Origin: an uncultured virus (IMG/VR IMGVR_UViG_3300032665_002303)
Lineage: Duplodnaviria; Heunggongvirae; Uroviricota; Caudoviricetes
IMG/VR virus record: IMGVR_UViG_3300032665_002303
Strand: one strand, 5' to 3'
Length of the DNA: 64,000 nt
Below are positions 1 through 63,965 of the stretch, one piece after another. The translations under genes were made by a program, and so were the position numbers. The notes under the pieces are model-generated. The model was not told the origin of the DNA, did not search any database, and was given only the letters and a program-made list of their open reading frames with translations. The number at the start of each line of letters is the position of its first letter. The stretch's first letter is position 1.

Positions 1-230
1 CAATAGCGAACTAAGGGATTGTTCTATAATTTTTAGAAAATTATGTTAAGCAAGATTTTGCCGTTAAAAAAGACAAAGATAGTGAAATCTGCTTAATATA
101 ATTTACATTATAGAAAAATCCCGCTGACGATGATTATTGATGGCGTGAAATCAGGGAACTGAAGCCAGGTTATGCGCCTATTCAATCAGGGCGAGAAAGA
201 TGAACGGAGCGTCGCAACGATGCTAAATAG
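1..230 (+). repeat. Long direct repeat copy A1 (near-identical to 6041-6270), ending in a short dispersed repeat at 202-230
   Basis: CAATAGCGAACTAAGGGATTGTTCTATAAT... aligns to 6041 onward at offset 6040 with few mismatches. Confidence 0.95.
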
Positions 231-259
231 AAATTAATAGCTGATTAACAAAAAATTTC

Positions 260-267
260 TACATTTG
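260..267 (+). promoter_or_regulatory. Bacteroidota-type -7 promoter box (TAnnTTTG)
   Basis: TACATTTG 25 nt before the ATG at 292. Similar boxes occur at 3004, 47839, 48517 and 58879. Confidence 0.55.
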
Positions 268-291
268 CTGTAAAACACAAACACTTACAGC

Positions 292-2919
292 ATGAAACAA
301 ATAATACTTCTCCTTTTATTATTTATTTCCGTAAACACCTTTGCTCAGTCCGGGCCTCCATATTTCTATATAGGCATACCTGAAGGCGTAAATGCTACCT
401 ATGGCGAATACACTGCTGATAGTTGCATGAGGGTGCCGGCAATACGCGCTCAGATGGTATGGGATCCAGATAGTTGCGGTCGTATATGGGTTGACATAAA
501 CATTGATAGTGGGCTGTACTACAACGATTGCCTGCACTCGCTAAGGCTACTTAGCACAAAAGACACGGTGGGATTGTTAGGTCATTATGTTCCAATAGTG
601 GATAGCGGCATACTCTATGTCACTCCGACTATGCTAAAGGATACAGCCGCTGCGCTGAGGGCGCTTATAAATTCAGATACGCCTTCGCTGCAAATTGTGC
701 TCACAAAGGGAGACACAACCGATATCCCGCTGTATTACACAAATGGGATGGGGGATACGATAGCAAGATGGGAGAGTGGAGACTTCACGGTGGGAAATTC
801 CCTATTCACCTCCACATACTCAACGATGGATGACGGTTTGGTTGGTGTTTTTAGCTATATCACCAATGCGTCAGCCACACTAGAGGGGAGCGGCGTGTTT
901 ACTTCTTCTCCCAGCTTGGTGCTATCCAATCTTTCCGGAACCGACGCTGGTGCATTATATGCCCCCACACTAACATCCAACAGGGCATGGAGAATGCCGG
1001 ATAGTAGCGGAGTGGTAGCCTTGTTATCGGATATAGCTACGCCTAACCTTCAGCAGGTAACCGATGTGGGGTACACCACGCATGACTCAATGATATTAAA
1101 CCATACGAACGGGAATTCATTTGTGGATATAGATACTACCGGGCCATATTCTGTGTCAATAACCCCATACAACATCAAAATATCCGGATCTGCATCAATT
1201 ACTGCAACTGGCACAAATAGTGCATGGAATGTAAGCGATGCAAGCGGGAATACCGCCTCTTTGGGATACAACGGAGGAAACATGAAGCTGGGATTTGTAA
1301 AGAACGGGTTCCTGTCTTCTATATACGTATACTCACTAAGTGCCGCAAGAAATGATACCATCCCCAATAAATCTGGAACATTCGCCATGACGTCGGACCT
1401 GACTGGCGGTACCGTAACGAGCATAACTGCAGGTTCTGGACTTACCGGCGGCACCATAACAACATCCGGAACGATCGCGATGCCTAATGTTGGTACATCT
1501 GGAACATATGGCGGAGCCTCCTCAATACCCGTAATAACAACAGATGCGCAAGGTAGGGTGACTTCTGTTTCCACCGTTACGCCTACGGCCCCATCCACCC
1601 AAACAGTCACACTAACCGGGGATGTCACAGGTTCGGCGTCTGGGAATCCACTAAGCATAGCTACGACATTAAAAAATACAGGAACGGCTGGTACTTACGG
1701 ATCATCTACACTTGTGCCGGTGATTACTACCGATGCACAGGGAAGAGTGAGTGGCGTAACTACCGCAACTATGACCGCTGGGACAGTAACAAGTGTATCG
1801 GCTACTTCTCCGGGAGGAACAATTACCCATACAGTAACGAGTGCAACAGCAACTCCGAATATAGCAGATGATATAGATTTGACCCACGCAAACAACTGGA
1901 CCGGTACAATTACGGAACAAAAGAATGGTATTGCTGCTGTTTCAACGGATGGCGTCGTTATTTCAAATACTACTGCTGCTACTTCTTTGGTTAAGTTTCA
2001 GCAATCACCAAATGTGCATTTTATAGGGCAGGGATGGAATACATCCCTTGCTACTTCTCAGCAAACCGACTTTCTTATAAATGCAGTTCCCTCTTATTCT
2101 TCAGTTAGTGGAGTAGTTAACAGCATAAATTTTCAATCACAGATTGCAGGAGGTGGGTATGCTACGCCAATGAATATTGTTCAATCAAGTTCCACGAGCT
2201 ATGTTGCAATTCCTACACTGTGGGTAAACACTATCAATGGCGCATCAAATTCTTCAACGGCCAATTACCTTACTATTCAAGGTACACCCACTAATGCAGG
2301 AGGTATATATTATACAATATTATCTAAACCTGCATCGACTTACACAAATACAACGAATAGTGTTTATGGATTAGCATTTGGACCGACATATAACCAAGCA
2401 AGTGGTTCAGGTGCAAATTATGATTTTATAGTAGCAAGAACAGAAACTGCCATAAATACAGGAGTGCAAAGATTGGCAACATTTGGTATCCAATCAGGAG
2501 CAACTTATACTGAAAAATTTGGAGTGGATAATAAGGGAAATGTTATAACGGTAGGAAGTGTCACTTGTACCACGCCAGCTACCTCATCTGCCACATCCCC
2601 CGTGGTGAATAATTCAGGATCTCTTCAGGCGGTTACAAATGGAGTTGTGGATATAAAATCGAATACTACGGCAACGGGTAATACTACCATAGCAATACCG
2701 GCGGGATCAATGCTGGAGAGTATAGTGATACTTCCAACAAACAACGAGACTATAAAGATTGGCACAACATCTGGCGGAACGGATATATTGGCATCTACCG
2801 CTTATACCGCAGGTAGTAACAATGGGATTGCGTATGGAGCAAAATACTTCACAGGAGCTACAACATTATTTATACAGGGTGCCGCAGGGTCGGTAAACTA
2901 CATAATTTATTATCACTAA
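292..2919 (+). CDS. Tail-fibre/adhesin-like Thr/Ser/Gly-rich protein with N-terminal signal-peptide-like segment
   Basis: Repeats GTxGTYGxxxxxPVITTDAQGRV (x2), GTVTSITAGSGLTGGTIT and PSLQxVxxxG (x2). N-terminus MKQIILLLLLFISVNTFAQ. Confidence 0.6.
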   Translation: MKQIILLLLLFISVNTFAQSGPPYFYIGIPEGVNATYGEYTADSCMRVPAIRAQMVWDPDSCGRIWVDINIDSGLYYNDCLHSLRLLSTKDTVGLLGHYVPIVDSGILYVTPTMLKDTAAALRALINSDTPSLQIVLTKGDTTDIPLYYTNGMGDTIARWESGDFTVGNSLFTSTYSTMDDGLVGVFSYITNASATLEGSGVFTSSPSLVLSNLSGTDAGALYAPTLTSNRAWRMPDSSGVVALLSDIATPNLQQVTDVGYTTHDSMILNHTNGNSFVDIDTTGPYSVSITPYNIKISGSASITATGTNSAWNVSDASGNTASLGYNGGNMKLGFVKNGFLSSIYVYSLSAARNDTIPNKSGTFAMTSDLTGGTVTSITAGSGLTGGTITTSGTIAMPNVGTSGTYGGASSIPVITTDAQGRVTSVSTVTPTAPSTQTVTLTGDVTGSASGNPLSIATTLKNTGTAGTYGSSTLVPVITTDAQGRVSGVTTATMTAGTVTSVSATSPGGTITHTVTSATATPNIADDIDLTHANNWTGTITEQKNGIAAVSTDGVVISNTTAATSLVKFQQSPNVHFIGQGWNTSLATSQQTDFLINAVPSYSSVSGVVNSINFQSQIAGGGYATPMNIVQSSSTSYVAIPTLWVNTINGASNSSTANYLTIQGTPTNAGGIYYTILSKPASTYTNTTNSVYGLAFGPTYNQASGSGANYDFIVARTETAINTGVQRLATFGIQSGATYTEKFGVDNKGNVITVGSVTCTTPATSSATSPVVNNSGSLQAVTNGVVDIKSNTTATGNTTIAIPAGSMLESIVILPTNNETIKIGTTSGGTDILASTAYTAGSNNGIAYGAKYFTGATTLFIQGAAGSVNYIIYYH

Positions 2920-3036
2920 AAATAAAAAATATGAAAAAACTATTCCCGGTAATCGTATATATTTTTAGGTAATTATATTCTTGTTTAACCCAAATATTTG
3001 TCGTATATTTGTAGTGTAAAGAAACACACACAGTAT

Positions 3037-6040: not shown

Positions 6041-6270
6041 CAATAGCGAACTAAGGGATTGTTCTATAATTTTTAGAAAATTATGTTAAGCAAGATTTTG
6101 CCGTTAAAAAAGACAAAGATAGTGAAATCTGCTTAATATAATTTACATTATAGAAAAATCCCGCTGAAGATGATTATTGATGGTGTGAAATCAGGGAACT
6201 GAAGCCAGGTTATGCGCCTATTCAATCAGGGCAATGCCGATGAACGGAGCGTCGCAACGAAGTTTAATAG
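6041..6270 (+). repeat. Long direct repeat copy A2, ending in a short repeat at 6242-6270
   Basis: Matches 1-230. Confidence 0.95.
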
Positions 6271-6328
6271 TAAAAATATTGCTGACTGCCAAATAAATAA
6301 TAACTTTACTGCCACAACCTAAAAAAGT

Positions 6329-11530: not shown

Positions 11531-11547
11531 ATCAGGGCGATGCCGTC

Positions 11548-11577
11548 GAACGGAGCGTCGCAACCGAAGCCAAATAG
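11548..11577 (+). repeat. Short dispersed repeat, solo forward copy
   Basis: GAACGGAGCGTCGCAACCGAAGCCAAATAG. Confidence 0.95.
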
Positions 11578-11596
11578 ATAAGATTGCTCCAAATTA

Positions 11597-13259: not shown

Positions 13260-13301
13260 GTTTCTTTTTTTAAAAAGTTTTTTAAGCGGGATTAAGTTTA
13301 T

Positions 13302-13600
13302 CTATTTGGCTTCAGAGGCGACGCTCCGTTCAGCGGCATATCACTATTCGATTATGCCACTACCTTTCAGGTAATCGTAGGCATCTTTCCATGCGCTATC
13401 CTTAAAATAAGCCGACCCTACGTCCCTACCTTTCGGTTTGTCCTTAACCACATAAATGTCGAAATATTCCGGCATGAAGCATATCGCCTCTGGGTGTATT
13501 TTCCTTACCTCTTCTTCGTAATTTATTTCTGTGTCGCTCATTGTGTGTGTTAAATTGAAAAATGAAGTCGAACGGAGCGTCGCAACGATGCTAAACCATA
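13302..13600. repeat. Inverted repeat pair A (reverse copy 13302-13331, forward copy from 13570) bracketing a small gene
   Basis: CTATTTGGCTTCAGAGGCGACGCTCCGTTC ... GAACGGAGCGTCGCAACGATGCTAAA. Confidence 0.9.
13344..13541 (-). CDS. Small hypothetical protein (65 aa) inside pair A
   Basis: ATG at 13541 after an A-rich leader. The longer track ORF runs into the repeat. Confidence 0.6.
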   Translation of the reverse strand: MSDTEINYEEEVRKIHPEAICFMPEYFDIYVVKDKPKGRDVGSAYFKDSAWKDAYDYLKGSGIIE

Positions 13601-13605
13601 GCATG

Positions 13606-15249
13606 TTAGCCGACTACCGCAATTAAATCATTTTTGTGGAGAATAAGGTATGGAACACCTTCTATGTCTTCTGAAAATCCTGCTCCTCTCCTGAAGAGAA
13701 CAACAGCATCTTTTGATAGTCGCCCATCTTCTTCTACGGCGGCTACTATTCCCTTTACCGGCCGCTCCTTGGCGCTATCCGGTATCAATAAGTCCCCTGA
13801 CGTTGATTCGTCCAGCGGGCGTACCCATACCATGTTGTTCATTGGTACGATGTCTTGCAGTTTGATGTGCATGTTTGTATGTGATTTAGAGATGATAAAT
13901 TCAGGGGCGGCTATAAGAAACTTTTTGCCCAGTATATTTATTGGGTAAAGCTCCTCATATGGTGTAATTACATAGGCCGGGATGCTACGCGGGTAAACTG
14001 TTTTTGCAACTACCATGTGGTCCTTGCGAAGGTATTGCGCTACGGCCGTTTCTTCTTTCTTGATCAGTTCCATCTCTTTGGTGATAGCGGACCATTCTGC
14101 GGGCTGTAACTCCGGGTTAAACTGGCTTCGGTGGAGCATTATGCCATTCAGCTTCAGCTTTGCCTTTTCTGCGGCATTTTTCTTCTTGTGCTCGATCATG
14201 TTGCGCAGGTCATCTATGTTGCGATACTGCGGCAGGTCTGATCCCGATGCCAACAAGGCACTTTCGCTTTGATGGCCGCTCAGTATATCGAATTCCCATG
14301 CAAGGAATACACTGCCATTAACAGGCGTGATGTCTATTATCTTCCCGGTGTTGCGCTCATAATGAAGTTTGCCGAATATCTCTCGTGACTTTTCCTGCCA
14401 GCAGTTAATGACCCGGTACTGGAACGTAGCGCCGCCATGTTTACCATACTCATGGCCGATAACCCGGTAGTCTGTATTCTCTATTGAGTGATGTATAATA
14501 ACAGTGTCGTGAGCACTAACCTCCGGGTACATCTTTTGCGCTTCGGAACCAACGCCCATCACTTGTGCATACTGCAGGTTATGCAACATGGCGATAAACA
14601 GCGGGGACAGTGACAGCCCGGAGTCGCTGGTGGTTCTTTTGACGTGCTGGGCCGCAAGGTCTATCTTTATGATCATCCTGTATGGCGCCACTTCTCCATT
14701 TACGGTGAATATATCCATCTCGCCGATTACATCCAGCACTATCCCGTCTACCACCGCCTGGGCGTAGATGCCACCGGCGTCCAGCTTGGCATATTCTATG
14801 CGGTCACCTTTTTTCATGGAGTAGCCATCGGGCGCGTCAAATACAATCCCTTTCTGGGTGATTCCGGTGACGGATGCCGGAAGTATAAGTCCCGTTTCGC
14901 TCATTTCCAGTTCGGATATAGGCCGCACATAGATGCGATTTACTGGACGGTCATTCACTTCGTATATCTCGCGCTCGAAAACGATGTCGCAGTTTTCTCC
15001 ATCCACTTCGATCTCGTCCAGAAAGTCCACATCGGTGCGGTCTATCTTGTTGTAGGATACGGTGTCGCCCACATTGAATGTAGAATCAATGCAGGTAGAC
15101 ACTACCTCTCCCATCTCACAGAACTTCGCTGCATGTTCAGGGTTTAAAAGGCCGGAGTCGGTAACGGATGCCGGTATCTTTACAGGCTTTACTACTAATC
15201 GGGGGAAATGAGTGTTTAGCTTCTCATTGAAGTAAGGTAGTGTATGCAT
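13606..15249 (-). CDS. Multi-domain GroES (Cpn10)-like co-chaperonin
   Basis: C-terminal domain IVPMNNMVWVRP...SGDLLIPDSAKERPVKGIVAAV is clearly GroES-like. Three further GroES-like segments lie upstream. Adjacent to groEL. Confidence 0.7.
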   Translation of the reverse strand: MHTLPYFNEKLNTHFPRLVVKPVKIPASVTDSGLLNPEHAAKFCEMGEVVSTCIDSTFNVGDTVSYNKIDRTDVDFLDEIEVDGENCDIVFEREIYEVNDRPVNRIYVRPISELEMSETGLILPASVTGITQKGIVFDAPDGYSMKKGDRIEYAKLDAGGIYAQAVVDGIVLDVIGEMDIFTVNGEVAPYRMIIKIDLAAQHVKRTTSDSGLSLSPLFIAMLHNLQYAQVMGVGSEAQKMYPEVSAHDTVIIHHSIENTDYRVIGHEYGKHGGATFQYRVINCWQEKSREIFGKLHYERNTGKIIDITPVNGSVFLAWEFDILSGHQSESALLASGSDLPQYRNIDDLRNMIEHKKKNAAEKAKLKLNGIMLHRSQFNPELQPAEWSAITKEMELIKKEETAVAQYLRKDHMVVAKTVYPRSIPAYVITPYEELYPINILGKKFLIAAPEFIISKSHTNMHIKLQDIVPMNNMVWVRPLDESTSGDLLIPDSAKERPVKGIVAAVEEDGRLSKDAVVLFRRGAGFSEDIEGVPYLILHKNDLIAVVG

Positions 15250-15300
15250 GTGCGGTTTTTATTTTTGGTTTTAAAAGTTTTTAAGCGGGATTTCGTCTTA

Positions 15301-15713
15301 CTATTGGGCTTCAGTGGCGACGCTCCGTTCGGCGGCGTCACTACTATCATTTATCTTGATAATAAGAAATAGATCTGTCCGAATTATTTTTAGTTTTATA
15401 AATAAAGTTTAATAAATTTTTTGGCGAATCCAACAGGTAGCCGATTGCGGAAGGGGTATCACCTTCTGAATATTGTATGCAAACGATGTATCTGGTGGAA
15501 ATATCATGGCCGTGACCGACATCATTTATGGAAACAATAAGACCATTTTTGCCAACTTCCTTATTAACTAAAGTAGCCAACTCTTCAAACGACTTTATTT
15601 CTGTAGCTGCAGCAATCGAGTGTTTATAATCTTCTCTTCTCGGCCTAAATAACATAATGCAAGTTTAATATATAGCAGAACGATGAACGGAGCGTCGCAA
15701 CGATACTAAATAG
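15301..15713. repeat. Inverted repeat pair B (reverse 15301-15330, forward 15685-15713)
   Basis: CTATTGGGCTTCAGTGGCGACGCTCCGTTC ... GAACGGAGCGTCGCAACGATACTAAATAG. Confidence 0.9.
15347..15655 (-). CDS. Hypothetical protein inside pair B
   Basis: 102-aa ORF filling the space between the repeats, AT-rich. Confidence 0.6.
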   Translation of the reverse strand: MLFRPRREDYKHSIAAATEIKSFEELATLVNKEVGKNGLIVSINDVGHGHDISTRYIVCIQYSEGDTPSAIGYLLDSPKNLLNFIYKTKNNSDRSISYYQDK

Positions 15714-15829
15714 TGGCAATAAGGCGACTACAAAAAATCAATAACGACATTTATCGTGTAAAAGTAGTGATAATAATGAATAACCCAAACCTATAAAGGT
15801 ATTTTTGTTGAAATAAATACCCAACTACT

Positions 15830-34285: not shown

Positions 34286-35008
34286 ATGCCTGCAGGCGGC
34301 CTAATTTCAAGCGGAGTCGGAGCACTACTAGGTGCCGGAGAAAGTATATGGGGTGGTATAGAAAAGAACAAGTACCAAAACCAACTGAATGCCTTATCAG
34401 CAAACAGGCCCCAGTATGCCATTAACCCCGAAGAGTACCAGATAGAAAACCAAGCAGCCTCCCAAGCCAATCAAGGCATGGGGGCAAACGCGCGTCAGCA
34501 ACTCAACAACAATACAGATCGCGGCTTGGCTACCAGCGCAAACGCAATACTCATGGGTGGTGGCAATGCCAACTCAATAGCTAACCTGGCAGATAAAACG
34601 CAGAACGCCTACAACCAGACATCATTATACGATGATCAGACGAGACTATCGAACCTTGCCAACTACCAGACGGCACTTGCAAGAATGAGTGCAGACAGGG
34701 ATAAGGCGTGGCAGATAAACACAGAGCAACCATGGAAGGATAAGATGACAGCGTTATCACAGCAGCTTACCGGCTCTAACAATATGCTGCAGTCTGGACT
34801 TAACCTGTTCGGCGGACAGCTCGGGACACTGGGGAAAGACTTGGGTGGCTTGGGCCGAAGCGCAGGATCGGGAACTGCGCCATCTGGGGATCAGTCGTTT
34901 GGAGGAGGTATACAGTATTCTGGAGGAATGGGAACAGGAATGGGATTAAGTGGAGGAGGAGCAGGAGGATATAACTTTAATCAACCATTACCATATATAG
35001 GACTTTAG
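34286..35008 (+). CDS. Putative internal virion / ejection protein
   Basis: Gly-rich hydrophobic N-terminus, Q/N/A-rich coiled coil. Confidence 0.55.
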   Translation: MPAGGLISSGVGALLGAGESIWGGIEKNKYQNQLNALSANRPQYAINPEEYQIENQAASQANQGMGANARQQLNNNTDRGLATSANAILMGGGNANSIANLADKTQNAYNQTSLYDDQTRLSNLANYQTALARMSADRDKAWQINTEQPWKDKMTALSQQLTGSNNMLQSGLNLFGGQLGTLGKDLGGLGRSAGSGTAPSGDQSFGGGIQYSGGMGTGMGLSGGGAGGYNFNQPLPYIGL

Positions 35009-35023
35009 GAACTGAGCAAAATG

Positions 35024-35432
35024 CTATGATTTAGCATCGTTGCGACGCTCCGTTTTAACACCTGATTTTCAATTTAACAATTCACATATAAAAACACAAA
35101 AAATGCAAAACGTTAGCAAGTTGATTAAGGAGGTTCTGAATGACAGTAGATTTATCGGATCGGGCATAGTCAATATAGAGGAAAAACATCATGAAAGGAC
35201 GGATGCGCAGGGGGTTATATTTTGCGTATCAGTGCAGATATTGAGAAGGAAAAATAAAGAAGGAGAAATGGAACCCATATATAGGGCTGACGCCGAGTCA
35301 AGGAGTCGTTTTTTTCAAGATGAAGTAGAAGATTTATATCGACGCCTATTTTATGCGATGATGGAAAAATCTCTTAGTTTGGGAGTAAATAATTCTGTCG
35401 CTGAACGGAGCGTCGCCACCGAAGCTAAATAG
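35024..35432. repeat. Inverted repeat pair F (reverse 35024-35054, forward 35403-35432)
   Basis: CTATGATTTAGCATCGTTGCGACGCTCCGTT ... GAACGGAGCGTCGCCACCGAAGCTAAATAG. Confidence 0.9.
35103..35432 (+). CDS. Hypothetical protein inside pair F, ending ERSVATEAK
   Basis: ATG 35103 after an A-rich leader. Confidence 0.6.
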   Translation: MQNVSKLIKEVLNDSRFIGSGIVNIEEKHHERTDAQGVIFCVSVQILRRKNKEGEMEPIYRADAESRSRFFQDEVEDLYRRLFYAMMEKSLSLGVNNSVAERSVATEAK

Positions 35433-35465
35433 TAAGATAAAAGCTAAGTAAAAAAATAAAACATA

Positions 35466-37364: not shown

Positions 37365-37565
37365 ATGGCATACGATACTCTTATTGAATTTGGCGGACAG
37401 CAGATAGAACTTCCTAAATGTGAATCGGCATTCAGTTGGAATATTGATGTTTTGCAAAAGGTCGCAAAACAAGCATTTCCAAGGTTGCATGATGACGATG
37501 CGCTTGCTAATCTTATTGACGTTCTGGATGCATGTAAGCGTGGTTTAACAATAGGATCAAAGTGA
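37365..37565 (+). CDS. Small hypothetical protein
   Basis: 66-aa ORF followed by a forward repeat. Confidence 0.5.
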   Translation: MAYDTLIEFGGQQIELPKCESAFSWNIDVLQKVAKQAFPRLHDDDALANLIDVLDACKRGLTIGSK

Positions 37566-37572
37566 TGCCGCC

Positions 37573-37602
37573 GAACGGAGCGTCGCCACTGAAGCTAAAT
37601 AG
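37573..37602 (+). repeat. Short dispersed repeat, solo forward copy
   Basis: GAACGGAGCGTCGCCACTGAAGCTAAATAG, 32 nt before the giant gene ATG. Confidence 0.95.
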
Positions 37603-37634
37603 AAGTAAAAAAGTTAAGTAAAAAATATATAAAA

Positions 37635-47741: not shown

Positions 47742-47758
47742 TAGCAGAACAGAACGAT

Positions 47759-47787
47759 GAACGGAGCGTCGCAACGATGCTAAATAG
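47759..47787 (+). repeat. Short dispersed repeat, solo forward copy
   Basis: GAACGGAGCGTCGCAACGATGCTAAATAG. Confidence 0.95.
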
Positions 47788-47959
47788 TAGCAAAAAGATA
47801 AGTTCAAAATAAATTTTGTAGATAAAGAAAAACAATTATACTTTTGTAGGAACAAAGGAAGATAGACTGATCCTCTATTTAAGAAAACATTGCCCCATTT
47901 AATTATCCCGGCGGGATCAGCGCCAGGTGTATTGGATGGGGCATTAACTTTTTACGCAA

Positions 47960-52197: not shown

Positions 52198-52540
52198 GCG
52201 CCGGAGGCTCAAAAGAGCATTTTTTGTAACTATAAATAAGCGCATATGTTACTTAGGTCTTTTATATTGATTTTAGAATTTCAGCGACTAGTTCTATTTA
52301 ACATTGCGTCAAATTATAGTTCAAAAAATTCCATTGGAGGCCGCATAGCCTGTTGCAAATATAGTACAAATGTTGAAACTGCAAAATAAATTTGCCCGAT
52401 GCAGGGCGCCGTAGTTGATGATTATTGATGAAGTTAAATCAGGGAACTGAAGCCTGGATTGGTGGGAGAACAAATTATACTTATTTTTGGATGATAATAG
52501 TGATGCCGCCGAACGGAGCGTCGCCACCGCAGCTAAATAG
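52198..52540 (+). repeat. Long direct repeat copy B1 (matches 56085-56427), ending in a short repeat at 52511-52540
   Basis: Near-identical over ~340 nt at offset 3887. Confidence 0.95.
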
Positions 52541-52596
52541 ATCGACAAAAGCTAAGTACAAAAGATTATATTTGTACTCACACAAACAAAGAGCCA

Positions 52597-56084: not shown

Positions 56085-56427
56085 GCGCCGGAGGCTCAAA
56101 AGAGCATTTTTTGTAACTATAAATAAGCGCATATGTTATTTAGGTCTTTTAGATTGATTTTAGAATTTTAGCGAATAGTTCTATTTAACATTGCGTCAAA
56201 TTATAGTTCAAAAAATTCCATTGGAGGCCGCATAGCCTGTTGCAAATATAGTACAAATGTTGAAACTGCAAAATAAATTTGCCCGATGCAGGGCGCCGTA
56301 GTTGATGATTATTGATGAAGTAAAATCAAGGAACTGAAGCCCGGATTGGTGGGCCAACAAATTATACTTATTTTTGGATGATAGTAGCGATGTTGTCGAA
56401 CGGAGCGTCGCCACTGAACCCTAATAG
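56085..56427 (+). repeat. Long direct repeat copy B2, ending in a short repeat at 56398-56427
   Basis: Matches 52198-52540. Confidence 0.95.
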
Positions 56428-56451
56428 TAGTACCAAAAGCTAAGTACAAAA

Positions 56452-58758
56452 ATGAATTACCAAGAAGGACAAATACTAACCATCCCCATAGGGAAAGAAG
56501 ATATAGCGGAACATTACTTCCACACCCCGCCTATTCCGCCAAAGAAGCAAATCCTATTCCACGACAAGAAAAAAGAAGATCAATACTGGACCAGGCAAAA
56601 AGACCTGCCCAAGATATTCTACGAATGGCACGAAGAAAAAACACAAGTAGGCATAGGGGTAGAACTGGATGCCAAGAAAACAGAGTACAGCGACACCGGG
56701 GAGCTTGTATCCCTGAGTAAAGTAGACACAGGCATACTATTCGACAAGATGGCCGTAGATGGCAGGGAAGGACTGCAAGAGCGCGAGCACCGAAGGAGAA
56801 CAGAAGGAGTGTGGTTCATGAATAATGGAGAGCCCACCTACCTTACCGGCAATCACTATGCAATACTGCAAAACCTGCCCATGCTGGGGTGCTCTAATGA
56901 CGTAGAGCCCGGCAGCCACTACGGGCAGTATTACCAATTCCAGCGGGATATGGCCTATTACTTTGAGGTATGTAAGAAAGTGGAATACGCCAGAGGTGGG
57001 ATATTCATCAAGCCAAAAAAGACCGGCGCCACCCAGTTTTTCTCATTGGTTGCTCTCAATGAGGCGATGACTAACCGGGAAAAGAATGTCCGCATGATGT
57101 CCATTACCGAAACACTGTGCAGGGAGTCAAACTTCGGGTTTGTAAAATATGCCATGCAGAAAGTGCCGAACATCCTAATGCCCTCCCGTTCAAAGCAGAA
57201 TGAGGGAGAGGTGGTGTTCGGCCCGCCAAATGCATCAAGGAGCCCGCTGAAAAAACGCCGGGATGTGAGTTTTGGGTACCTGAACACATGGCTATGCACG
57301 GTACCAACAACCCGTACTGCCTTCGATACGTTCACAAATCACCTGGCGCTCATAGATGAGTTCCCCAAAATAAAGGAGAATACCTACCCAGAAGAGTTGT
57401 TTCTTGCCACGATGCCTACCGTAATGGAGGGATTTAAACGCAAAGGAACCATATTCGCCCTATCTTACGTGCCGGAGATCACCGACCGCTCATTCTACGA
57501 GGCCCGGCAGCTATACAAGGACAGCAAACTAAAAACAAGGAAGCGTGACGAGAATGGCAACCAATACGGAGAAACCAAAAGCAAGCTCATCTGCCATACC
57601 TTGACCGTACAGGAGGGAATGTTTAGTTGCTGTGATAAATACGGAAAACCCATTGAGAAGAAGATATGGGATGAGATACGCCGAGAACTGGACGACGTAA
57701 AGCACGATCCGGTAAAACTGCAGGCAACAAAAAGGCAGTACCCGGCCAGCGAGGCGGACCCATGGAGCGAAACCAGCAGGGAGGACAGCCTGTTTGATAA
57801 CCTCCGGCTAGGAGAGAAGGCGCAGGAATTAGAGGAACTGCAGTCATTAGGCGCGGCACCATACAAGGACTTCAACCTGGAATATACCGTATTGCCGGTA
57901 AAGGACCTCAAAAGTGAGCGATATAAGTTTGATGGTAATATCCGCATGAAATTTGTCACCGACGAAGAGAAGATGAATGACGCGCCTCACGGAAAATTCA
58001 AGTGGTACCACAAAGACTGGACACCTGACTGGTTCCTACAACGACATCTGAACAAAACAACAGTAGACACAAAGACTGGACGCAGGATGCCCAACCCTAA
58101 TGCCCCATTTTTTATATCCATTGACCCCACCAACTACCGCATAAGGAAAAACACCGGCAAGGGCTCTCTGAACGCCATGCAGGTGTTCTTGCTCCCCAGC
58201 GCGGAGTTAGATGCGCAGCAGGGTAAAAGTGTCAGCAATAGGCGCCTAATGGTTAGCTATCTACACAGGTGCGATAAGCCAAGTGACACCCTTGCGGATA
58301 TGATCAAGTTGATACTTATGTTCGGGTGCATGGTCCAGATAGAGTCAAACGTAAGTACATGGGCCACGCAGCTTATAGAAATGGGCTTAGGAAACTTCGT
58401 GCTCATGGTAAATAAAGACGGAGCAATCGAGCCATGGAAGGACTACGATGCTGGACAGAACTATTTTACCTCCCAGAAATCGCAGATAGACATGTATGTA
58501 GCGGCTGGTGCAGAATTCTTAGGCGCCCCCATGATAGAAGGAGAAGTGGATAACATACAATACCTGGACGACTTAGATGTGGTCCAGCAGTTAATGATGA
58601 TCAAGAAAGAAAACACCACAGAGTATGATGCTGCAGTCGCCTACCTCGAAGGATTAATGGGTATAGATGTATGGCTGGGATGGAAAAGAGCAAACGACAA
58701 CAAAGGAAGAAAGAATGATGAAGGACTACGGCAGTTTGCAATGAACATGCTCCACTAA
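56452..58758 (+). CDS. terL: Terminase large subunit
   Basis: GVWFMNNGEPTYLTGNHY N-terminal motif of crAss/Bacteroidota phage TerL, Walker A-like KPKKTGAT, Walker B LALIDE, nuclease ISIDP. Confidence 0.85.
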   Translation: MNYQEGQILTIPIGKEDIAEHYFHTPPIPPKKQILFHDKKKEDQYWTRQKDLPKIFYEWHEEKTQVGIGVELDAKKTEYSDTGELVSLSKVDTGILFDKMAVDGREGLQEREHRRRTEGVWFMNNGEPTYLTGNHYAILQNLPMLGCSNDVEPGSHYGQYYQFQRDMAYYFEVCKKVEYARGGIFIKPKKTGATQFFSLVALNEAMTNREKNVRMMSITETLCRESNFGFVKYAMQKVPNILMPSRSKQNEGEVVFGPPNASRSPLKKRRDVSFGYLNTWLCTVPTTRTAFDTFTNHLALIDEFPKIKENTYPEELFLATMPTVMEGFKRKGTIFALSYVPEITDRSFYEARQLYKDSKLKTRKRDENGNQYGETKSKLICHTLTVQEGMFSCCDKYGKPIEKKIWDEIRRELDDVKHDPVKLQATKRQYPASEADPWSETSREDSLFDNLRLGEKAQELEELQSLGAAPYKDFNLEYTVLPVKDLKSERYKFDGNIRMKFVTDEEKMNDAPHGKFKWYHKDWTPDWFLQRHLNKTTVDTKTGRRMPNPNAPFFISIDPTNYRIRKNTGKGSLNAMQVFLLPSAELDAQQGKSVSNRRLMVSYLHRCDKPSDTLADMIKLILMFGCMVQIESNVSTWATQLIEMGLGNFVLMVNKDGAIEPWKDYDAGQNYFTSQKSQIDMYVAAGAEFLGAPMIEGEVDNIQYLDDLDVVQQLMMIKKENTTEYDAAVAYLEGLMGIDVWLGWKRANDNKGRKNDEGLRQFAMNMLH

Positions 58759-58894
58759 AAACAATTTTATTGAGCCAGCTATCTCTCTCCGATGGAGCGT
58801 CCGTTGCGACGCTCCATTCATCTTTCTGCCCCTGATGAAAATATTTTAAAATAAATTTGGTGGTTAAATAATTAGTGCTACATTTGTGATAATT

Positions 58895-59077: not shown

Positions 59078-59361
59078 TGACTGGTAAATTTTGGTTTATA
59101 TTGACACTTCAGATTGCCGCCGTATTCTTCGTGGCTATATCAATGTCGTTTATTGGTGATTATTTTCACGGATTCTTTGGTGATTATTTTCACAAAATAC
59201 CTGAAAAATGTTGGATAGGAGCAGTATATGAAGCAAATGAGCCACATTGGCACTGGGGATATAGGCATGTGCTGTGGTGTTTTATGGGCGTATTCATATT
59301 TTTAGTTCAGGTGTTTCGCATTGGAGTATTTATATATCGAGAAGCCCAATCAAAGCACTGA
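59077..59361 (+). CDS. Small membrane protein
   Basis: Two TM segments with HWHWGYRH loop. Confidence 0.6.
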   Translation: MTGKFWFILTLQIAAVFFVAISMSFIGDYFHGFFGDYFHKIPEKCWIGAVYEANEPHWHWGYRHVLWCFMGVFIFLVQVFRIGVFIYREAQSKH

Positions 59362-59434
59362 ACGATCAACGGAGCGTCGCAACGATGCTAAATAGTGGCA
59401 AAAAACCTGACAAACAAAACCTAAAAATAGAGAA

Positions 59435-59920
59435 ATGACACCAATCAAGAAATACCCAAAGAACCACAAGGGCGGAGTGCCACTGGCAGAGTATAAAAAC
59501 CTGATGAAGCACTATGATAATATGACTACATATGCGGCCGTACAGGAGCAAGAGGCTAAAGATCAAAAAGCAAAACAGGAGCACCTTGTAAAAGAGCTGA
59601 AATCCAAGTGCGATCTGAATGTATCGTACTTGAGCCAGCTACACAAGATAGAAATGGACCGAGCCGAGAACACTACAACCATAAAAACAGTAGGTGACGC
59701 AATAAACTACACCGTCCACTTCCTGGCTAACTTCAAAATACAGGACAAGGCAGAGATCATCAAGCAGATATCGGCTAACTTTCTAAAGCAAGAGCGCGAG
59801 CGCCTAGCTGCCATGAAAAATGAAGTGGGATTCAACGAGGAGATACTATCTCAGTATACAAGTTCTATGGAGAAGTTTTCAAGAGGAGATGTGTTCTTAT
59901 CTCCGGAGAGTTTTAAATGA
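59435..59920 (+). CDS. Hypothetical coiled-coil protein
   Basis: 161-aa ORF between repeats. Confidence 0.6.
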   Translation: MTPIKKYPKNHKGGVPLAEYKNLMKHYDNMTTYAAVQEQEAKDQKAKQEHLVKELKSKCDLNVSYLSQLHKIEMDRAENTTTIKTVGDAINYTVHFLANFKIQDKAEIIKQISANFLKQERERLAAMKNEVGFNEEILSQYTSSMEKFSRGDVFLSPESFK

Positions 59921-59941
59921 CTTTTAAGCCAGCGGGCGTCG

Positions 59942-60784
59942 CTATGATTAAACATCGTTGCGACGCTCCGTTCGACTTCATACTTTCAATTTCACACACA
60001 AATTAAAATAGGTATGTGCAAAGAGCATCCAATATTATTTTCTACACCAATGGTGGAGGCTATTATTGACGGAAGAAAAACAATGACGAGGCGCATAGTT
60101 AAGCCAATGAGGTCCCAGAGGTGGCTATCGATGGATACGCTATTAAAATCGCCATCGGCCTATATGTGCATTATTGACGGAGATGATTGGGCGCAATTCA
60201 GGCACCCATTAGCCGGACAGTTTGCGTTCGGTGTTCAAAATGAGGAAGATAGCCCCTTAACCTGCATTAAACACCCTTACGGGAATATCGGGGATGTGTT
60301 ATATGTTCGCGAAACATGGCAGCACACGGATAGTCTTGGAGTAAATAGGGAGGATGAAAATTCGGGCTATATCTACAAGGCTAGTGAGAATGGTAGGGAG
60401 TGGGAATCCAGCGATGATAATTGGATATGGAAGCCTTCTATTTTTCTGCCAAAAGAAGGATCGAGAATATGGATTCAGATATCCGATATAAAGATGGAGC
60501 GACTACAAGATATTTCGCAAGAAGATGCAAGGCTGGAGGGTATTTTACCGGCGCCACATAGGCCGTCAATGCCGTCTTGCCCATTACATAAAGATAAATC
60601 AATGCATAGAGATTGCTTCGTGTGTGCATTTAAAACGCTATGGAATAAAATAAATGGAAAGTCTGGGAATGGGTGGCTTATAAATCCGTGGGTGTGGGCA
60701 ATATCTTACAATGTGTTATCTACAACAGGCAGGCCAAATAGTATTCCTGTTTTTGAACGGAGCGTCGCCACTGAAGCTAAATAG
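59942..60784. repeat. Inverted repeat pair H (reverse 59942-59973, forward 60755-60784)
   Basis: CTATGATTAAACATCGTTGCGACGCTCCGTTC ... GAACGGAGCGTCGCCACTGAAGCTAAATAG. Confidence 0.9.
60014..60784 (+). CDS. Phage ASCH/PUA-like protein, ending ERSVATEAK
   Basis: PILFSTPMVEAIIDGRKTMTRR, GDVLYVRETW, WKPSIFLP, ERLQDIS, NPWVW family motifs. Confidence 0.7.
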   Translation: MCKEHPILFSTPMVEAIIDGRKTMTRRIVKPMRSQRWLSMDTLLKSPSAYMCIIDGDDWAQFRHPLAGQFAFGVQNEEDSPLTCIKHPYGNIGDVLYVRETWQHTDSLGVNREDENSGYIYKASENGREWESSDDNWIWKPSIFLPKEGSRIWIQISDIKMERLQDISQEDARLEGILPAPHRPSMPSCPLHKDKSMHRDCFVCAFKTLWNKINGKSGNGWLINPWVWAISYNVLSTTGRPNSIPVFERSVATEAK

Positions 60785-60811
60785 TAAGGAAAAAGCTAAG
60801 TACCCAAAATT

Positions 60812-61123
60812 ATGCCCAGACTACCTACCATAAGAACCCTAAGAGAATGTATTACCTGGTATACTAACAAGTATTATGAGCTAGTAACAACAGATATAAG
60901 ATCAAGAGAAAGAGCACACATAGAACTTATAGAAGAAGTTAACGAAAGATACCTGCTTGTATTAAAAAAATGTATACCAGAACAATATGAAGAAGGTAAA
61001 GATGCTTTTATAAGGAACATAGACTTTCTTACACAAGTATTTACTAAAAAAAGGATGAGAGAAGAAAAGGAAATGGCATTACAGGAGTTCAAAAATAAAA
61101 TTCAGGGAGCCAGCGGCCGGTAA
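60812..61123 (+). CDS. Hypothetical protein
   Basis: 103-aa ORF between repeats. Confidence 0.55.
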   Translation: MPRLPTIRTLRECITWYTNKYYELVTTDIRSRERAHIELIEEVNERYLLVLKKCIPEQYEEGKDAFIRNIDFLTQVFTKKRMREEKEMALQEFKNKIQGASGR

Positions 61124-61177
61124 TAAATTAAGCCAAGTTGCGACGCTCCGTTCATCTTCATACTTTCAATTAAAAAC

Positions 61178-61523: not shown

Positions 61524-61766
61524 ATGATTGACCAATTGAAGGTAGCACAAGTGATATTGTGCGAAAAAATATCAAGGGGAGACGGAAAGGATACGCCCAT
61601 TCGCAAAATTATGGAGGTTGTTGACTTGGATGGAAAATTCATAGCTGAGTATGATTTTTTAAGTTTTACTATAGAGGAGGTGATGGAATTATTACCGAGT
61701 ATAGATGTTGATACAAGGGCCTCTATATATAGATCGCTATTAAAAGCCCGGGACTGCGCAAGGTGA
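61524..61766 (+). CDS. Hypothetical protein inside pair I
   Basis: ATG 61524; RGDGKDTPIR motif. Confidence 0.55.
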   Translation: MIDQLKVAQVILCEKISRGDGKDTPIRKIMEVVDLDGKFIAEYDFLSFTIEEVMELLPSIDVDTRASIYRSLLKARDCAR

Positions 61767-61833
61767 TGTCGCTGAACGGAGCGTCGCCACTGAAGCCAAA
61801 TAGATAAACTAACTTCTGCTTAAAAATATTTTT

Positions 61834-62472
61834 ATGAACACAAACTTAGAATTCCGTATCTGGGACAAACAAGAAAAGAAATGGGCAGCCCAATCTCACT
61901 ATACAGAGGCGATTCTGCTATCTGCAGCAGGGGATATTGTAACCGTAGATAACAATGGCAGAATGTTATGCAGCCAACCAGGATTCAGGTACGAAGTAAG
62001 TCAATACACCGGCTTCAAGGACAAGGAAGGAGTAAAAGCATTTACCGGGGATAAGGTGGAGTATTACAATAAGGAGGGTGGTGAAATAGTTTTTTCAGAT
62101 CACCATGGCGCATATATGATAGATGGAAAAGGAAGGGGTATGCGCGGTATGTCAAATGGTTCGTGGAAGATAGTAGGAAGCAAATGGGAAGAGAAGCCGG
62201 AGCCCGCACCAAATTCTCCAGCCCACCGCAAAACCAAAGAGGAGATAGCGGATGATATTCTTAGGTATCTAAGAGGAAGCGCCAATCCAAGGGTGGTAGA
62301 TTTATTGTCCAAAAAGCGACCACCACTCTGCCTGCGTCCCCGCCACATAGTAGAAACACAAAGAATGGGAGAGATAAACGTTGCTATATCCCGTTACCTG
62401 GTAGAAGGAAAAGGAATACCAAAAGAGTGGATAGAGGAATTGCAGGAGCTTAATGATAAAAGGGGGATGTAG
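61834..62472 (+). CDS. YopX-family protein with C-terminal extension
   Basis: EFRIWDK...SQYTGFKDKEG...GDKV. Confidence 0.7.
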   Translation: MNTNLEFRIWDKQEKKWAAQSHYTEAILLSAAGDIVTVDNNGRMLCSQPGFRYEVSQYTGFKDKEGVKAFTGDKVEYYNKEGGEIVFSDHHGAYMIDGKGRGMRGMSNGSWKIVGSKWEEKPEPAPNSPAHRKTKEEIADDILRYLRGSANPRVVDLLSKKRPPLCLRPRHIVETQRMGEINVAISRYLVEGKGIPKEWIEELQELNDKRGM

Positions 62473-62547
62473 CCAGCGGCGGTGCCGTGATTAGGCAGCC
62501 GTTGCGACGCTCCGTTCGACTGAATTTAACAATTAAACAACCATATT

Positions 62548-63030
62548 ATGCAGGGACTTACACCAAGCCAATTATCAGAGGTATCAGAATTCGTACAGAA
62601 ACACCATAAATTTGGATATGTCAGAGAGGATGATAGATACGCAGGGCATGAAGGGTACTGTATAAAGTATATTGATGCTTGCTATGACTCTCGGCAGGCT
62701 GATTTTTGGGCTATAACATTCAGGGGTTGTGGTAGAATTAACTTCTCCACGAACTCTCAATATCCAAAACCATATACTACATTATTTGATTGGATAATGG
62801 GTTTTTTAAAATACGAATGGCTGCAAGAGGGGAAAAGATATGATCACATGTCAGAAAAGTCGGAAGCCCTGCTGGTTAATAGTTTCCCTAATGGAGAGAT
62901 AGAAACAGAATGGAGCGATATTGATATGATGAATGCTTATTGTGCAGATTTGGAAGACGGAGCAACTTCAGATGATATGGCAGATGCTTGTAAGTGGGTC
63001 ATTCAATATAGAGAAAAACAGAATAAATAA
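62548..63030 (+). CDS. Hypothetical protein
   Basis: 160-aa ORF with A-rich leader. Confidence 0.6.
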   Translation: MQGLTPSQLSEVSEFVQKHHKFGYVREDDRYAGHEGYCIKYIDACYDSRQADFWAITFRGCGRINFSTNSQYPKPYTTLFDWIMGFLKYEWLQEGKRYDHMSEKSEALLVNSFPNGEIETEWSDIDMMNAYCADLEDGATSDDMADACKWVIQYREKQNK

Positions 63031-63056
63031 CCGACCGTACAAGAATTAAACAGTTT

Positions 63057-63368
63057 ATGGGATTAAATATAAGTATATATCGGGTCAATATTCAATTAGA
63101 CGATGAGGGGTATTTTGTATCAGAAGAGAGGGTAAATGAACAAGTTGGCTGGGATAGCCTCAGATATGCGGGGGATACTGATTTTTCCAAAGCGAATTTA
63201 TGTCTTCAAATAAAAGACAGAGAGAGTGTATATTACCGTCCTGAAAATTTCGAATCAACGTTTGCTTGGATAAACGGAATTGTTCCTACTGGAAATAAAA
63301 ACAGATGGATTGAAATTCTAAATAAAATGAAAGGACAACCAGACTTATATTTCTTCTTTGGATGGTGA
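63057..63368 (+). CDS. Hypothetical phage protein
   Basis: MGLNISIYR-type N-terminus common in small phage proteins. Confidence 0.6.
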   Translation: MGLNISIYRVNIQLDDEGYFVSEERVNEQVGWDSLRYAGDTDFSKANLCLQIKDRESVYYRPENFESTFAWINGIVPTGNKNRWIEILNKMKGQPDLYFFFGW

Positions 63369-63758
63369 GTAGCAAACCGACCGTACAAGTGTGCGACGCA
63401 ACGCAGCCGATAGTAGCAACAAATCTGACAACCAAAAATTTACATACAATGCAAACAGAAATACCTTTTAAGATCGAAGGAAATACAGCCCCATTTACAT
63501 GCAGGAGCAGAAGAAGGCGCTGTGGAAGCAATTTGTGAATAGATTTGAGGTGCTAAAAGAGAAAGCGCAGAGTACATATCCAAACGGAAAGCCATGGGAG
63601 GACATTCTGGCTGAAATGTTGCAAAACGAATATAATCTGACGGTAAAGTAAATATCCTTTCCTCTTGAAACAAGAACGCCCGCTATATGCGGGCGTTTAC
63701 TTTTGTATGGAATAGCTAAATTATTAATAGAACCCAGAACGGAGCGTCGCAACGATGC

Positions 63759-63965
63759 CTAATCAGTGGCCTCCGGCCGGCCCAACGGTTCATCAAAACT
63801 AACAGTAATAATACACCCACTATCAGTAAGAGAGAATATTATCTTACGCAACTCCTTTCTTGTTTCAAAGCGGCTGGTCTTGATAACACTCTCTAGTTTG
63901 GCGGCAGAAGGGTTTACTATTGTTATATGCCCTCCATTGTATAAATACTTTTTGTTTACAGGCAT
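63759..63965 (-). CDS. Small hypothetical protein
   Basis: Preceded on the minus strand by GCTAAGTACCCAAAA, the leader seen after other repeats. Confidence 0.5.
   Translation of the reverse strand: MPVNKKYLYNGGHITIVNPSAAKLESVIKTSRFETRKELRKIIFSLTDSGCIITVSFDEPLGRPEATD

Follow-up and report, generated by a model that had tools for sequence, protein, structure and literature searches.

A gene-boundary repeat dispersed through an uncultured tailed phage is the same element as an interspersed repeat of Chitinophagaceae chromosomes

The 64,000-nucleotide stretch of the uncultured virus IMGVR_UViG_3300032665_002303 (Caudoviricetes) analyzed here, referred to as the window, is punctuated by a dispersed repeat which is the same element as an interspersed intergenic repeat native to the chromosomes of the bacterial family Chitinophagaceae. 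The window represents only part of the phage genome, and its gene maps are based on open reading frames (ORFs). The 13-nucleotide (nt) core of the repeat, AACGGAGCGTCGC, was found in 28 exact copies and in two copies with one mismatch (40717, plus strand; 58806-58818, minus strand), with a mean chance expectation of 0.01, and none of 100 dinucleotide-preserving shuffles of the window matched the observed number. All 29 copies listed in an initial annotation of the sequence (19 on the plus and ten on the minus strand) were recovered with coordinates within one base, the copy at 40717 being additional to them. The consensus described there, i.e., the core followed by AACGAT or CACTGAA and then by GCTAAATAG, holds for the copies in the window (Table 1).

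A strict search pattern (core, MAC, 3-4 N, GCYNAAT) yielded at least 120 matches in a collection containing one genome per species. Among the matches listed, all titles naming a taxon referred to Chitinophagaceae, Chitinophagales or an unclassified Bacteroidota metagenome-assembled genome, and the genera listed comprised Flavihumibacter, Flavisolibacter, Ferruginibacter, Terrimonas, Chitinophaga, Pinibacter, Puia, Filimonas, and Segetibacter. The taxa of these chromosomal matches support the previously proposed Bacteroidota host and narrow it to Chitinophagaceae, and scans of candidate Bacteroidota chromosomes, as had been suggested along with that proposal, showed the element to be dispersed in many genera of this family. 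A sequence-only profile derived from host copies alone matched all 30 phage copies with 31-56 bits, and since these matches extend over 48-100 nt (at least 66 nt in 29 of the 30 copies), the phage shares the whole element and not the core alone. Host copies adjoin ordinary chromosomal genes, of which rho (in two genera), atpD, metK, rplO, sucD, gcvH, proS, ffh, serS, tex, ilvD, yebC, mutS2, and two GH3 genes were confirmed by Pfam. The occurrence of the same element, with all flanking boxes, beside housekeeping genes speaks against a phage-private system resembling stoperators, which had been considered initially. The cluster A stoperators and cluster K start-associated sequences of mycobacteriophages are phage-specific motifs that are bound by the phage repressor and oriented with transcription. 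The repeat resembles them in that many copies of an asymmetric motif of 13-17 nt are placed at phage gene boundaries; unlike stoperators, it belongs to a host chromosomal repeat and is found in both orientations, ten of the phage copies being antisense to both neighboring genes, which also disagrees with the idea that its orientation is tied to transcription.

The exact core was present in 51 of 151 sampled genomes of the family and absent from the other 100, with a range of 0 to 97 per genome. Three complete chromosomes contained 22, 8, and 7 exact cores, and a reversed-pattern control gave none. Profile counts, which are lower bounds as 150 first-look candidates were scored per genome, amounted to at least 98 in genome G001 and at least 122 in the 3.24 Mb of genome G116. 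Genome G005 has no exact core, yet at least 116 profile copies with the variant core TGAAgGGtGCGACGCAAC, in which GCGTCGC is replaced by GCGACGC; G004 and G006, from the same family, contained no copies by profile. For G116, the best-measured element-rich host, the local density was ~0.04 per kb (three further copies in 74.6 kb around 24 known copies, with filters off), as compared to 0.47 per kb in the window (30 copies in 64 kb) and 0.61 per kb in L400, a metagenomic relative of the phage (11 copies in 18 kb). According to the initial annotation, a catalogued host repeat family of similar density and without any link to accessory genes would have reduced the motif to passive repeat invasion. 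The motif is indeed found in host chromosomes, but its density there is ~12-fold lower than in the window, no catalogued family was found, and the element is linked to accessory-gene insertion. Full-text literature searches returned no description of the repeat and no occurrence of AACGGAGCGTCGC itself.

The repeat unit is not ~30 bp long, as had been assumed, but a modular, non-palindromic element of ~95 nt. Its 5′ part consists of a box GCYNAAT(A/C)(G/A), a spacer of ~13 nt, TG and the invariant core, and its 3′ part of (A/C)AC, 3-4 variable nt, a second GCYNAAT box, a spacer of ~10 nt, GCYGGT or GCTAAGT, and an A-run. In copies of the CAC type the core is followed by CACTGAAGCTAAATAG, ~8 nt, AAAGCTAAGT and the A-run, in those of the AAC type by AACGATGCTAAAT. 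The consensus of 122 distinct aligned host copies reads A..GCTnAATAG, ~13 nt, TG, AACGGAGCGTCGC, (A/C)AC and 3-4 nt in its 5′ half and GCTCAATCA, ~10 nt, GCTGGT.AC and an A-run in its 3′ half, with the related boxes GCYNAAT, GTTGAAC, GCYNAAT, and GCYGGTnAC recurring at ~21-nt intervals. When the element is read in sense direction, direct inspection reveals stop codons in all three frames and, at its end, an A-rich leader directly adjoining the following start codon. A GGAGCGTC/GACGCTCC hairpin can be formed by a minority of copies only. RNAalifold analysis of the 122 host copies gave -0.04 kcal/mol with four weak pairs and no compensatory change (-1.05 kcal/mol for the reverse strand), and mutual information in the host alignment was restricted to neighboring-column effects, without covariation. 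In the window, Rfam reported only the tRNA-Met at gathering score, and a permissive scan of 33950-35500 returned only chance-level snoRNA matches (E 0.17-1.3). With no consensus fold on either strand, no long-range mutual information and no Rfam match, a structured RNA was rejected. Some host copies (L223, L243, L261, L263, L313, L200, L204, and L250; about 200 nt upstream of the core) are part of a longer composite of ~190 nt, which includes another box resembling the core, CAAGAGTGCGACCC. An upstream GCGACGC in this composite is the inverted complement of GCGTCGC in the core, ~32 nt away.

Within the window, 27 of the 30 copies lie at gene boundaries by the ORF map. The remaining three (40717, 43969, and 44503) are positioned in frame within one giant ORF of 3368 aa (37635-47741). 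The earlier statement of an almost exclusive location at gene boundaries holds, as does that of a structural core nearly free of copies: the collinear block 15830-29797 contains no strong copy and only weak profile matches at 17291-17346 (17.5 bits) and 21589-21658 (9.9 bits). Each minus-strand copy is followed by a plus-strand copy, resulting in head-to-head pairs around one or two small ORFs, and orientation alternates strictly in three runs of 5, 8, and 8 copies.

Comparison with G155 (= L120; 91 kb), the closest relative in IMG/VR with a terminase 64% identical to that of the window, demonstrates what these pairs enclose. G155 yielded no element profile match in 91 kb. It is collinear with the backbone of the window, which comprises a 1733-aa ORF, groEL (11661-13259, minus strand), a gene for a 547-aa protein whose last 80 residues form a GroES (Cpn10) domain (13606-15249, minus strand), the structural block including an endolysin gene (17760-18356), the giant ORF, a 220-aa gene and the gene of the terminase large subunit (56452-58758). 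All six small ORFs that are bracketed by head-to-head pairs between backbone genes are without homolog in G155; relative to this phage, each small ORF enclosed by inverted elements represents an insertion into an otherwise collinear backbone. Between groEL and the GroES-fusion gene, for instance, the gap measures 43 nt in G155 vs. 346 nt in the window, the extra sequence being an element, a 65-aa ORF, and another element. Homologs in G155 are also missing for the ORFs 33277-34046 and 37365-37565 and for the regions 234-6040 (except for a 46-residue match of the 54-aa ORF 5856-6020), 47960-52125, 53246-56015, and 58895-64000. The absence of the pair-bracketed ORFs from a collinear relative supports the proposal that a cis element at gene boundaries is tied to the gain of accessory genes. 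Both the groEL and the GroES-fusion gene are kept in G155.

The bracketed ORFs are mutually unrelated, and four of them (31648-31887, 34097-34252, 35103-35432, and 60014-60784) read through the right-hand element and end with ERSVATEA(K/Q) before the stop codon. A paralogous family or an insertion sequence (IS)-like unit was discarded as an explanation for these ORFs, as only the element-encoded tail is common to them. The conserved C-terminal peptide was likewise rejected as the selected entity, since the 3-or-4-nt spacer indel breaks the frame in hosts and one of the six in-ORF copies of the window and L400 is in a different phase from the other five.

Two pairs of direct repeats that end at elements and flank low-GC segments (0.37-0.40 vs. 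about 0.45 elsewhere) were observed in addition. The 233-nt pair encloses 5.8 kb with an 875-aa ORF, an IS1595-family transposase-like gene, a methyltransferase gene, a PD-(D/E)XK nuclease gene, and tRNA-Met (5694-5768, minus strand). The 300-nt pair encloses 52498-56084, i.e., the 220-aa backbone gene (52597-53259) followed by ~2.8 kb of accessory DNA with low GC. The 220-aa gene of G155 is placed immediately before the terminase gene, while in the window the two are ~3.2 kb apart, this distance being made up of accessory DNA and then of the upstream noncoding region, present a second time together with its element. Such an arrangement is what would be left by a single crossover or an unequal exchange at shared element-bearing sequence. 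The low-GC islands 2000-6000 and 48000-56000 coincide with regions absent from G155, their only two matches to that genome being the 54-aa ORF and the 220-aa gene, and hold transposase-like genes, tRNA-Met and many short ORFs on both strands. The transposase-like genes of the IS1595 family (DDE and zinc ribbon) in the window (3037-3978 and 48545-49483) and in L400 (15100-16056) are 35-37% identical to one another. The gene 3037-3978 overlaps the start of the DNA methyltransferase gene, and with the PD-(D/E)XK nuclease gene following, it resembles a member of an operon more than a complete IS.

Metagenomic relatives carry the element to differing extents: 11 copies were found in L400 (terminase 62% identical), four in L407 (68%, a 1.4-kb fragment), one in L402 (70%), and none in L401 (61%). 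The layout of L400 is that of the window, with three copies in the giant ORF and a head-to-head pair around an 87-aa ORF. A further copy stands in front of a 212-aa gene preceding the terminase gene, at the same position as copies in the window (52512) and L402. The window copy near aa 2290 of the giant ORF and the L400 copy near aa 1411 occupy homologous positions in an alignment with 47% identity. The giant ORF (1-7458 in L400) contains a histidine-phosphatase domain near aa 1511-1659, and its conserved blocks are separated by low-complexity linkers holding the in-frame element copies; it may stem from the fusion of neighboring genes across elements that lost their stop codons. More distantly, at 22-27% identity, the terminase of the window is related to those of Cellulophaga and Flavobacterium phages. 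The stretch itself is present in freshwater and lake metagenome runs. Outside the terminase search, five IMG/VR contigs (L191-L195, 27-46 kb) were found to carry one to three copies each of the same element. It may mark the phages of Chitinophagaceae in general.

With all 30 copies of the phage taken together, only two of 390 core positions are mismatched, as compared to 174 of 390 for the upstream 13 nt. At orthologous sites of the window, L400 and L402, where the flanks and even the element subtype differ, the core is identical, and so it is at the homologous site within the giant ORF despite the divergence of the surrounding protein. As neutral decay of a parasitic insertion would not leave an intact core, we infer that something reads the core and that the phage gains by keeping it. 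This constancy points to purifying selection and to a factor recognizing the core, which would most likely be host-encoded; ongoing gene conversion is an alternative account.

We tentatively favor, while attaching only limited confidence to it, the view that the repeat is a phage-borne expansion of a host element that acts as a set of portable gene-boundary modules and cassette-exchange points. The element would have been taken from, or would be shared with, the interspersed repeat family of the host. As a connector, it would stop translation in all frames and supply an A-rich leader to the next start codon, and its head-to-head pairs would bracket small accessory genes placed amid the conserved backbone. 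Recombination of scattered copies, be it inside the phage, among phages infecting the same cell or perhaps with the chromosome of the host, might then lead to the gain, loss, or duplication of cassettes, as is reported for the PeSL (promoter-early stem-loop) cassettes of T4-type phages. The identity with the host repeat, the location of host copies beside chromosomal genes, the high density in the phage, the constancy of the core, the insertion of bracketed ORFs relative to G155, and the direct repeats that end at elements and flank low-GC segments count in favor of this view.

In function, the nearest known counterpart, judged by analogy, appears to be the PeSLs of T4-type phages, for which a sigma70-like promoter combined with a terminator stem-loop, both with tested activities, is described (PMC2839356, PMC4122927). 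As depicted there, PeSLs are small repeated intergenic modules concentrated where non-essential ORFs interrupt conserved blocks; they flank ORFans, differences between related phages map to them, and they were proposed as points of homologous exchange, with recombination between cassettes producing indels or mini-circles. Repeated intergenic modules flanking non-conserved ORFs between conserved blocks are also what synteny with G155 and the layout of L400 display. The element itself is not a PeSL. It contains neither a conserved stem-loop nor a host-type promoter, all 11 promoter matches being located outside, and, in contrast to PeSLs as portrayed there, it occurs in both orientations, has an invariant 13-mer and is common to the host chromosome with all its boxes.

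This lack of a promoter and a stem-loop is one of several points that weigh against the favored view. No recombination event was observed directly: contigs of four metagenome runs aligned to 18500-38400 gave low and fragmentary coverage, with loose ends at elements that are repeat cross-matches, and three joints at elements with sides of 26-31 nt were treated as artefacts of the same kind. No close relative with a terminase more than 70% identical was found. An invariant 13-mer is not a requirement of homologous recombination as such, and the factor reading the core is putative. Finally, host copies are mostly single and located beside ordinary genes, so the bracketing may be a side effect of the presence of one element in each intergenic gap.

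A possible though rather unlikely alternative is that the element serves only as a transcription-control site, i.e., that core and boxes are bound by a host factor such as an activator, a roadblock protein, or an alternative sigma factor, that the phage placed copies of this site before its own genes to exploit the factor and that the link to cassettes is secondary. An invariant asymmetric core with variable flanks is the behavior of a binding site, and the ~21-nt spacing would place the boxes on the same side of the helix. The 12 CAC-type copies of the phage are all in sense orientation; 37-72 nt lie between the end of the core and a start codon in 11 of them, and the 12th (43969) is inside the giant ORF. 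CAC-type host copies are in sense orientation and upstream of a gene in 15 of 20 cases, and a copy is located ~210-220 nt upstream of rho in two genera. Promoters carried by intergenic repeats are mentioned for halovirus HF2 (PMC8707807). Against this stand the AAC-type copies. In the window, ten of them are antisense to both neighbors, and 16-48 nt lie between the 5′ side of their core and the next start codon. Among mixed hosts, classified with crude ORF maps (longest ORFs of at least 100-110 aa), AAC-type copies have no preferred orientation (co-directional genes: 21 sense, 19 antisense; divergent genes: 8; convergent genes: 10), and 12 of 78 classified copies (13 of 79 under another count), as well as five of 24 in G116, lie between convergent genes. 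In genome G019, 16 of 24 AAC-type copies are antisense co-directional. The element occupies short intergenic gaps in G116, where, in 13 of the 14 cases of a gene on the A-run side pointing towards it, 31-65 nt separate the stop codon from the core. Polar sites of the Ter/KOPS type were rejected as well, the strand lists of G001 and G084 being mixed as judged by eye.

The existence of family members such as G004 and G006 without the element, and of 100 genomes out of 151 without an exact core, implies that no essential regulon depends on it. Matches to the canonical Bacteroidetes-type promoter, TTTG-N15-21-TAnnTTTG, number 11 in the window vs. 3.1 expected, and all of them are found beside and not inside elements. 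Guiding by Cas12f/TnpB was also rejected, since PF07282 was detected in G001 only and is absent from the element-rich genomes G116 and G019. The report on dCas12f-sigmaE (PMC13472631) gives a 5′-G TAM (target-adjacent motif), a guide of 14-16 nt, a transcription start site 46 bp downstream of the TAM, and only few target sites per genome; the element is similar in geometry, with a G followed by 16 conserved nt and an A-run starting near +46, but in contrast to that system it is abundant and does not co-occur with PF07282.

Only slightly less plausible, and still improbable, would be a gene-capture or exchange system common to this phage clade and its hosts, in which the invariant 13-17 nt core of a ~95-bp module is read by a putative recombinase or guide, head-to-head pairs of the module define cassettes insertable between backbone genes, and the hundreds of host copies serve as landing or exchange points. 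If true, this would provide a direct route of gene flow between Chitinophagaceae chromosomes and phages, with a logic resembling that of integrons or pdif modules but built on a site that is unrelated and non-palindromic.

We consider it more doubtful that the cores are site-specific recombination sites of the pdif or attC kind, at which a dedicated recombinase exchanges modules bounded by inverted sites. The strict alternation of orientation, the invariant core and the fact that modules bounded by inverted copies are insertions relative to G155 would suit this idea, and in the pdif modules of Acinetobacter plasmids, too, inversion of the short conserved sites bounding gene modules leads to alternating orientation. 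GTTGAAC of the host consensus moreover fits GTTRRRY, the integron core site. Nevertheless, alternation would follow trivially from the insertion of units composed of a minus copy, an ORF and a plus copy, and host copies are mostly single. The core lacks the inverted arms, or the two arms and spacer recognized by XerC/D in pdif sites, and the element is much longer than 28 bp. The absence of a conserved fold or hairpin and the alternating orientation also separate it from attC sites. No integrase or recombinase was identified among the window proteins scanned (29 with Pfam and 53 with PHROGs), which represent part of the phage genome.

Quite improbable, in our judgment, is a selfish mobile element of the non-autonomous MITE, REP, or SINE kind, spreading through AT-rich intergenic DNA in host and phage alike without benefit to either. 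The patchy copy number within one family, lineage-specific core variants such as that of G005, 5′-truncated copies, the A-rich 3′ end and in-frame copies inside ORFs, the latter as reported for RPE and REP units (PMC3733652), would all agree with such an origin. On the other hand, single units have no conserved hairpin and no MITE-like terminal inverted repeats, one end being GCYNAAT and the other GCYGGT plus the A-run. Between copies of one genome the boxes are kept while the spacers vary, and neutral decay predicts that the core diverges like its flanks, whereas it is intact at old orthologous sites. By eye, no target-site duplication was evident in the flanks of copies in G116 and G019; for comparison with an empty site, the only other genome in the genus of G116 is ~70% identical with broken synteny. 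A transposase or nuclease co-occurring with the motif, as anticipated in the initial annotation, did not emerge from the three candidate families tested: besides Cas12f/TnpB, neither IS1595 nor Y1/RAYT tracks the element. The IS1595-like transposases (two in the window, one in L400) were rejected as mobilizers because they show no co-occurrence in the 151 host genomes, with none in G010, G001, and G116, and none of eight IMG/VR phage loci (134 kb) with relatives of the IS1595-like gene of the window carries the element. RAYT/Y1 transposases were rejected since PF01797 is found in the element-free G004 and G006 and in element-rich genomes alike, with no significant match in G116.

REPs are characterized in PMC3733652 as palindromes of 20-40 bp with stems of 8-9 bp and loops of 4-5 nt. 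With REP/REPIN and CGTC-tagged repeats as presented there, the element shares an interspersed, mostly intergenic location, a copy number that varies widely between related genomes, head-to-head dimers, in-frame intragenic units, a CGTC motif (here in the core) and, with the CGTC repeats, the lack of a dedicated transposase. It differs from REPs in its length, its direct-repeat boxes, the absence of a conserved stem or palindrome and the absence of an association with RAYT. Pneumococcal BOX, ERIC, and Correia elements are, like the element, modular, intergenic or intercistronic and occasionally inserted in frame into ORFs, and longer composite forms of the element are found in hosts as well; unlike it, these families and RPEs are palindromic or have terminal inverted repeats. 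To our knowledge, none of the BOX, ERIC, Correia, and RPE families is reported to densely colonize a phage of the same host. The likeness in modularity, location, and in-frame insertion extends to the RPEs of Rickettsia, which are named in PMC3733652.

Very improbable is an action at the RNA level, a pairing role having been suggested in the initial annotation; inverted copies in one transcript would form long duplexes whose cleavage (e.g., by RNase III) would process the small ORF between them or silence it. In its favor, any antisense/sense pair is predicted to form a duplex of -36 to -64 kcal/mol. However, cognate pairs (-45.74 kcal/mol) do not pair better than non-cognate ones (-45.71 kcal/mol), which led to the rejection of pair-specific duplexes, covariation is absent, host copies are mostly single, and the orientation of the DNA relative to genes is free.

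Two further repeats were noticed in the window. A 30-nt repeat, AATAACGAC.T.T.TCGTGTAAAAGTAGTG, is present at 15740-15769 and 21339-21368 (90% identical), upstream of both starts of the element-free structural block; different from the element, it is a candidate motif of a late promoter or an operator. A 35-nt repeat occurs in three copies (52245-52279, 53466-53500, and 56132-56166; 91-94% identical), all within the accessory DNA of low GC that lies upstream of the terminase gene.

Table 1. Copies of the element, as located by the core pattern and the host-derived profile, and long direct repeats in the window.
Feature	Position	Strand	Remarks
Element, AAC type	182..266	+	core 203-215; 49.5 bits; ends noncoding repeat 1-233; upstream of ORF 292-2919
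Element, AAC type	6222..6308	+	core 6243; ends repeat 6041-6273; upstream of 1733-aa backbone ORF
Element, shortened	11540..11587	+	core 11549; 34 bits; between convergent 6329-11530 (+) and groEL (-)
Element, CTC variant of CAC type	13265..13355	-	core 13318-13330; sense, upstream of groEL (13259-11661)
Element, AAC type	13544..13636	+	core 13571; antisense to flanking minus-strand genes; with 13265-13355 brackets 65-aa ORF 13541-13344
Element, CAC type	15258..15347	-	core 15317-15329; sense, upstream of GroES-fusion gene (15249-13606)
Element, AAC type	15650..15749	+	core 15686; divergent gap; with 15258-15347 brackets 102-aa ORF 15655-15347
Element, AAC type	29779..29864	-	antisense; left bracket of cassette ORF 29876-30040
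Element, CAC type	30039..30116	+	sense; right bracket of cassette ORF 29876-30040; 37 nt from ATG of backbone gene 30108
Element, AAC type	31571..31650	-	antisense; left bracket of cassette ORF 31648-31887; D1 box overlaps stop codon of backbone gene 30900-31592
Element, CAC type	31840..31924	+	sense; right bracket of ORF 31648-31887; encodes ORF tail ERSVATEAQ-stop
Element, AAC type	34005..34102	-	antisense; 56.1 bits; left bracket of cassette ORF 34097-34252
Element, CAC type	34201..34283	+	sense; right bracket of ORF 34097-34252; encodes tail ERSVATEAK-stop
Element, AAC type	34997..35091	-	antisense; left bracket of cassette ORF 35103-35432
Element, CAC type	35390..35465	+	sense; right bracket of ORF 35103-35432; encodes tail ERSVATEAK-stop
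Element, CAC type	37560..37636	+	sense; directly upstream of 3368-aa ORF
Element, in-frame	40717..40782	+	inside 3368-aa ORF near aa 1028; one core mismatch
Element, in-frame	43937..44030	+	inside 3368-aa ORF near aa 2112
Element, in-frame	44473..44539	+	inside 3368-aa ORF near aa 2290; position homologous to copy in L400 giant ORF
Element, AAC type	47742..47824	+	just past giant-ORF stop; canonical TTTG...TAnnTTTG site next at 47815-47846
Element, CAC type	52484..52577	+	upstream of 220-aa backbone gene 52597; same-position copy in L400 and L402
Element, CAC type	56380..56463	+	directly upstream of terminase large subunit gene 56452-58758
Element, AAC type	58757..58850	-	antisense; one core mismatch; core and downstream flank form a 10-bp palindrome in this copy
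Element, AAC type	59338..59430	+	sense; upstream of ORF 59435
Element, AAC type	59910..60003	-	antisense; left bracket of ORF 60014-60784
Element, CAC type	60731..60814	+	sense; right bracket of ORF 60014-60784; encodes tail ERSVATEAK-stop
Element, AAC type	61089..61174	-	antisense; left bracket of ORFs 61178-61766
Element, CAC type	61766..61839	+	sense; upstream of YopX-like ORF 61834
Element, AAC type	62462..62545	-	antisense; left bracket of ORFs 62548-63368
Element, AAC type	63705..63785	+	sense
300-nt noncoding direct repeat	52198..52497	+	97% identity with 56085-56384; both copies lead into an element
233-nt noncoding direct repeat	1..233	+	95% identical to 6041-6273; each copy ends 18 nt past element core

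The repeat family may be one that has so far been undescribed in a common family of soil and freshwater bacteria. As a sequence tag, the element would link uncultured phages to Chitinophagaceae hosts, and its core would offer a defined bait of 13-17 nt for the protein or RNA that reads it. If the favored view of portable gene-boundary modules holds, a large freshwater phage would build its accessory genome with an interspersed repeat of its host as a standard gene connector, and this connector would be kept intact by selection through at least 30-40% protein divergence. This would provide a testable model of cassette shuffling outside the T4-like phages.

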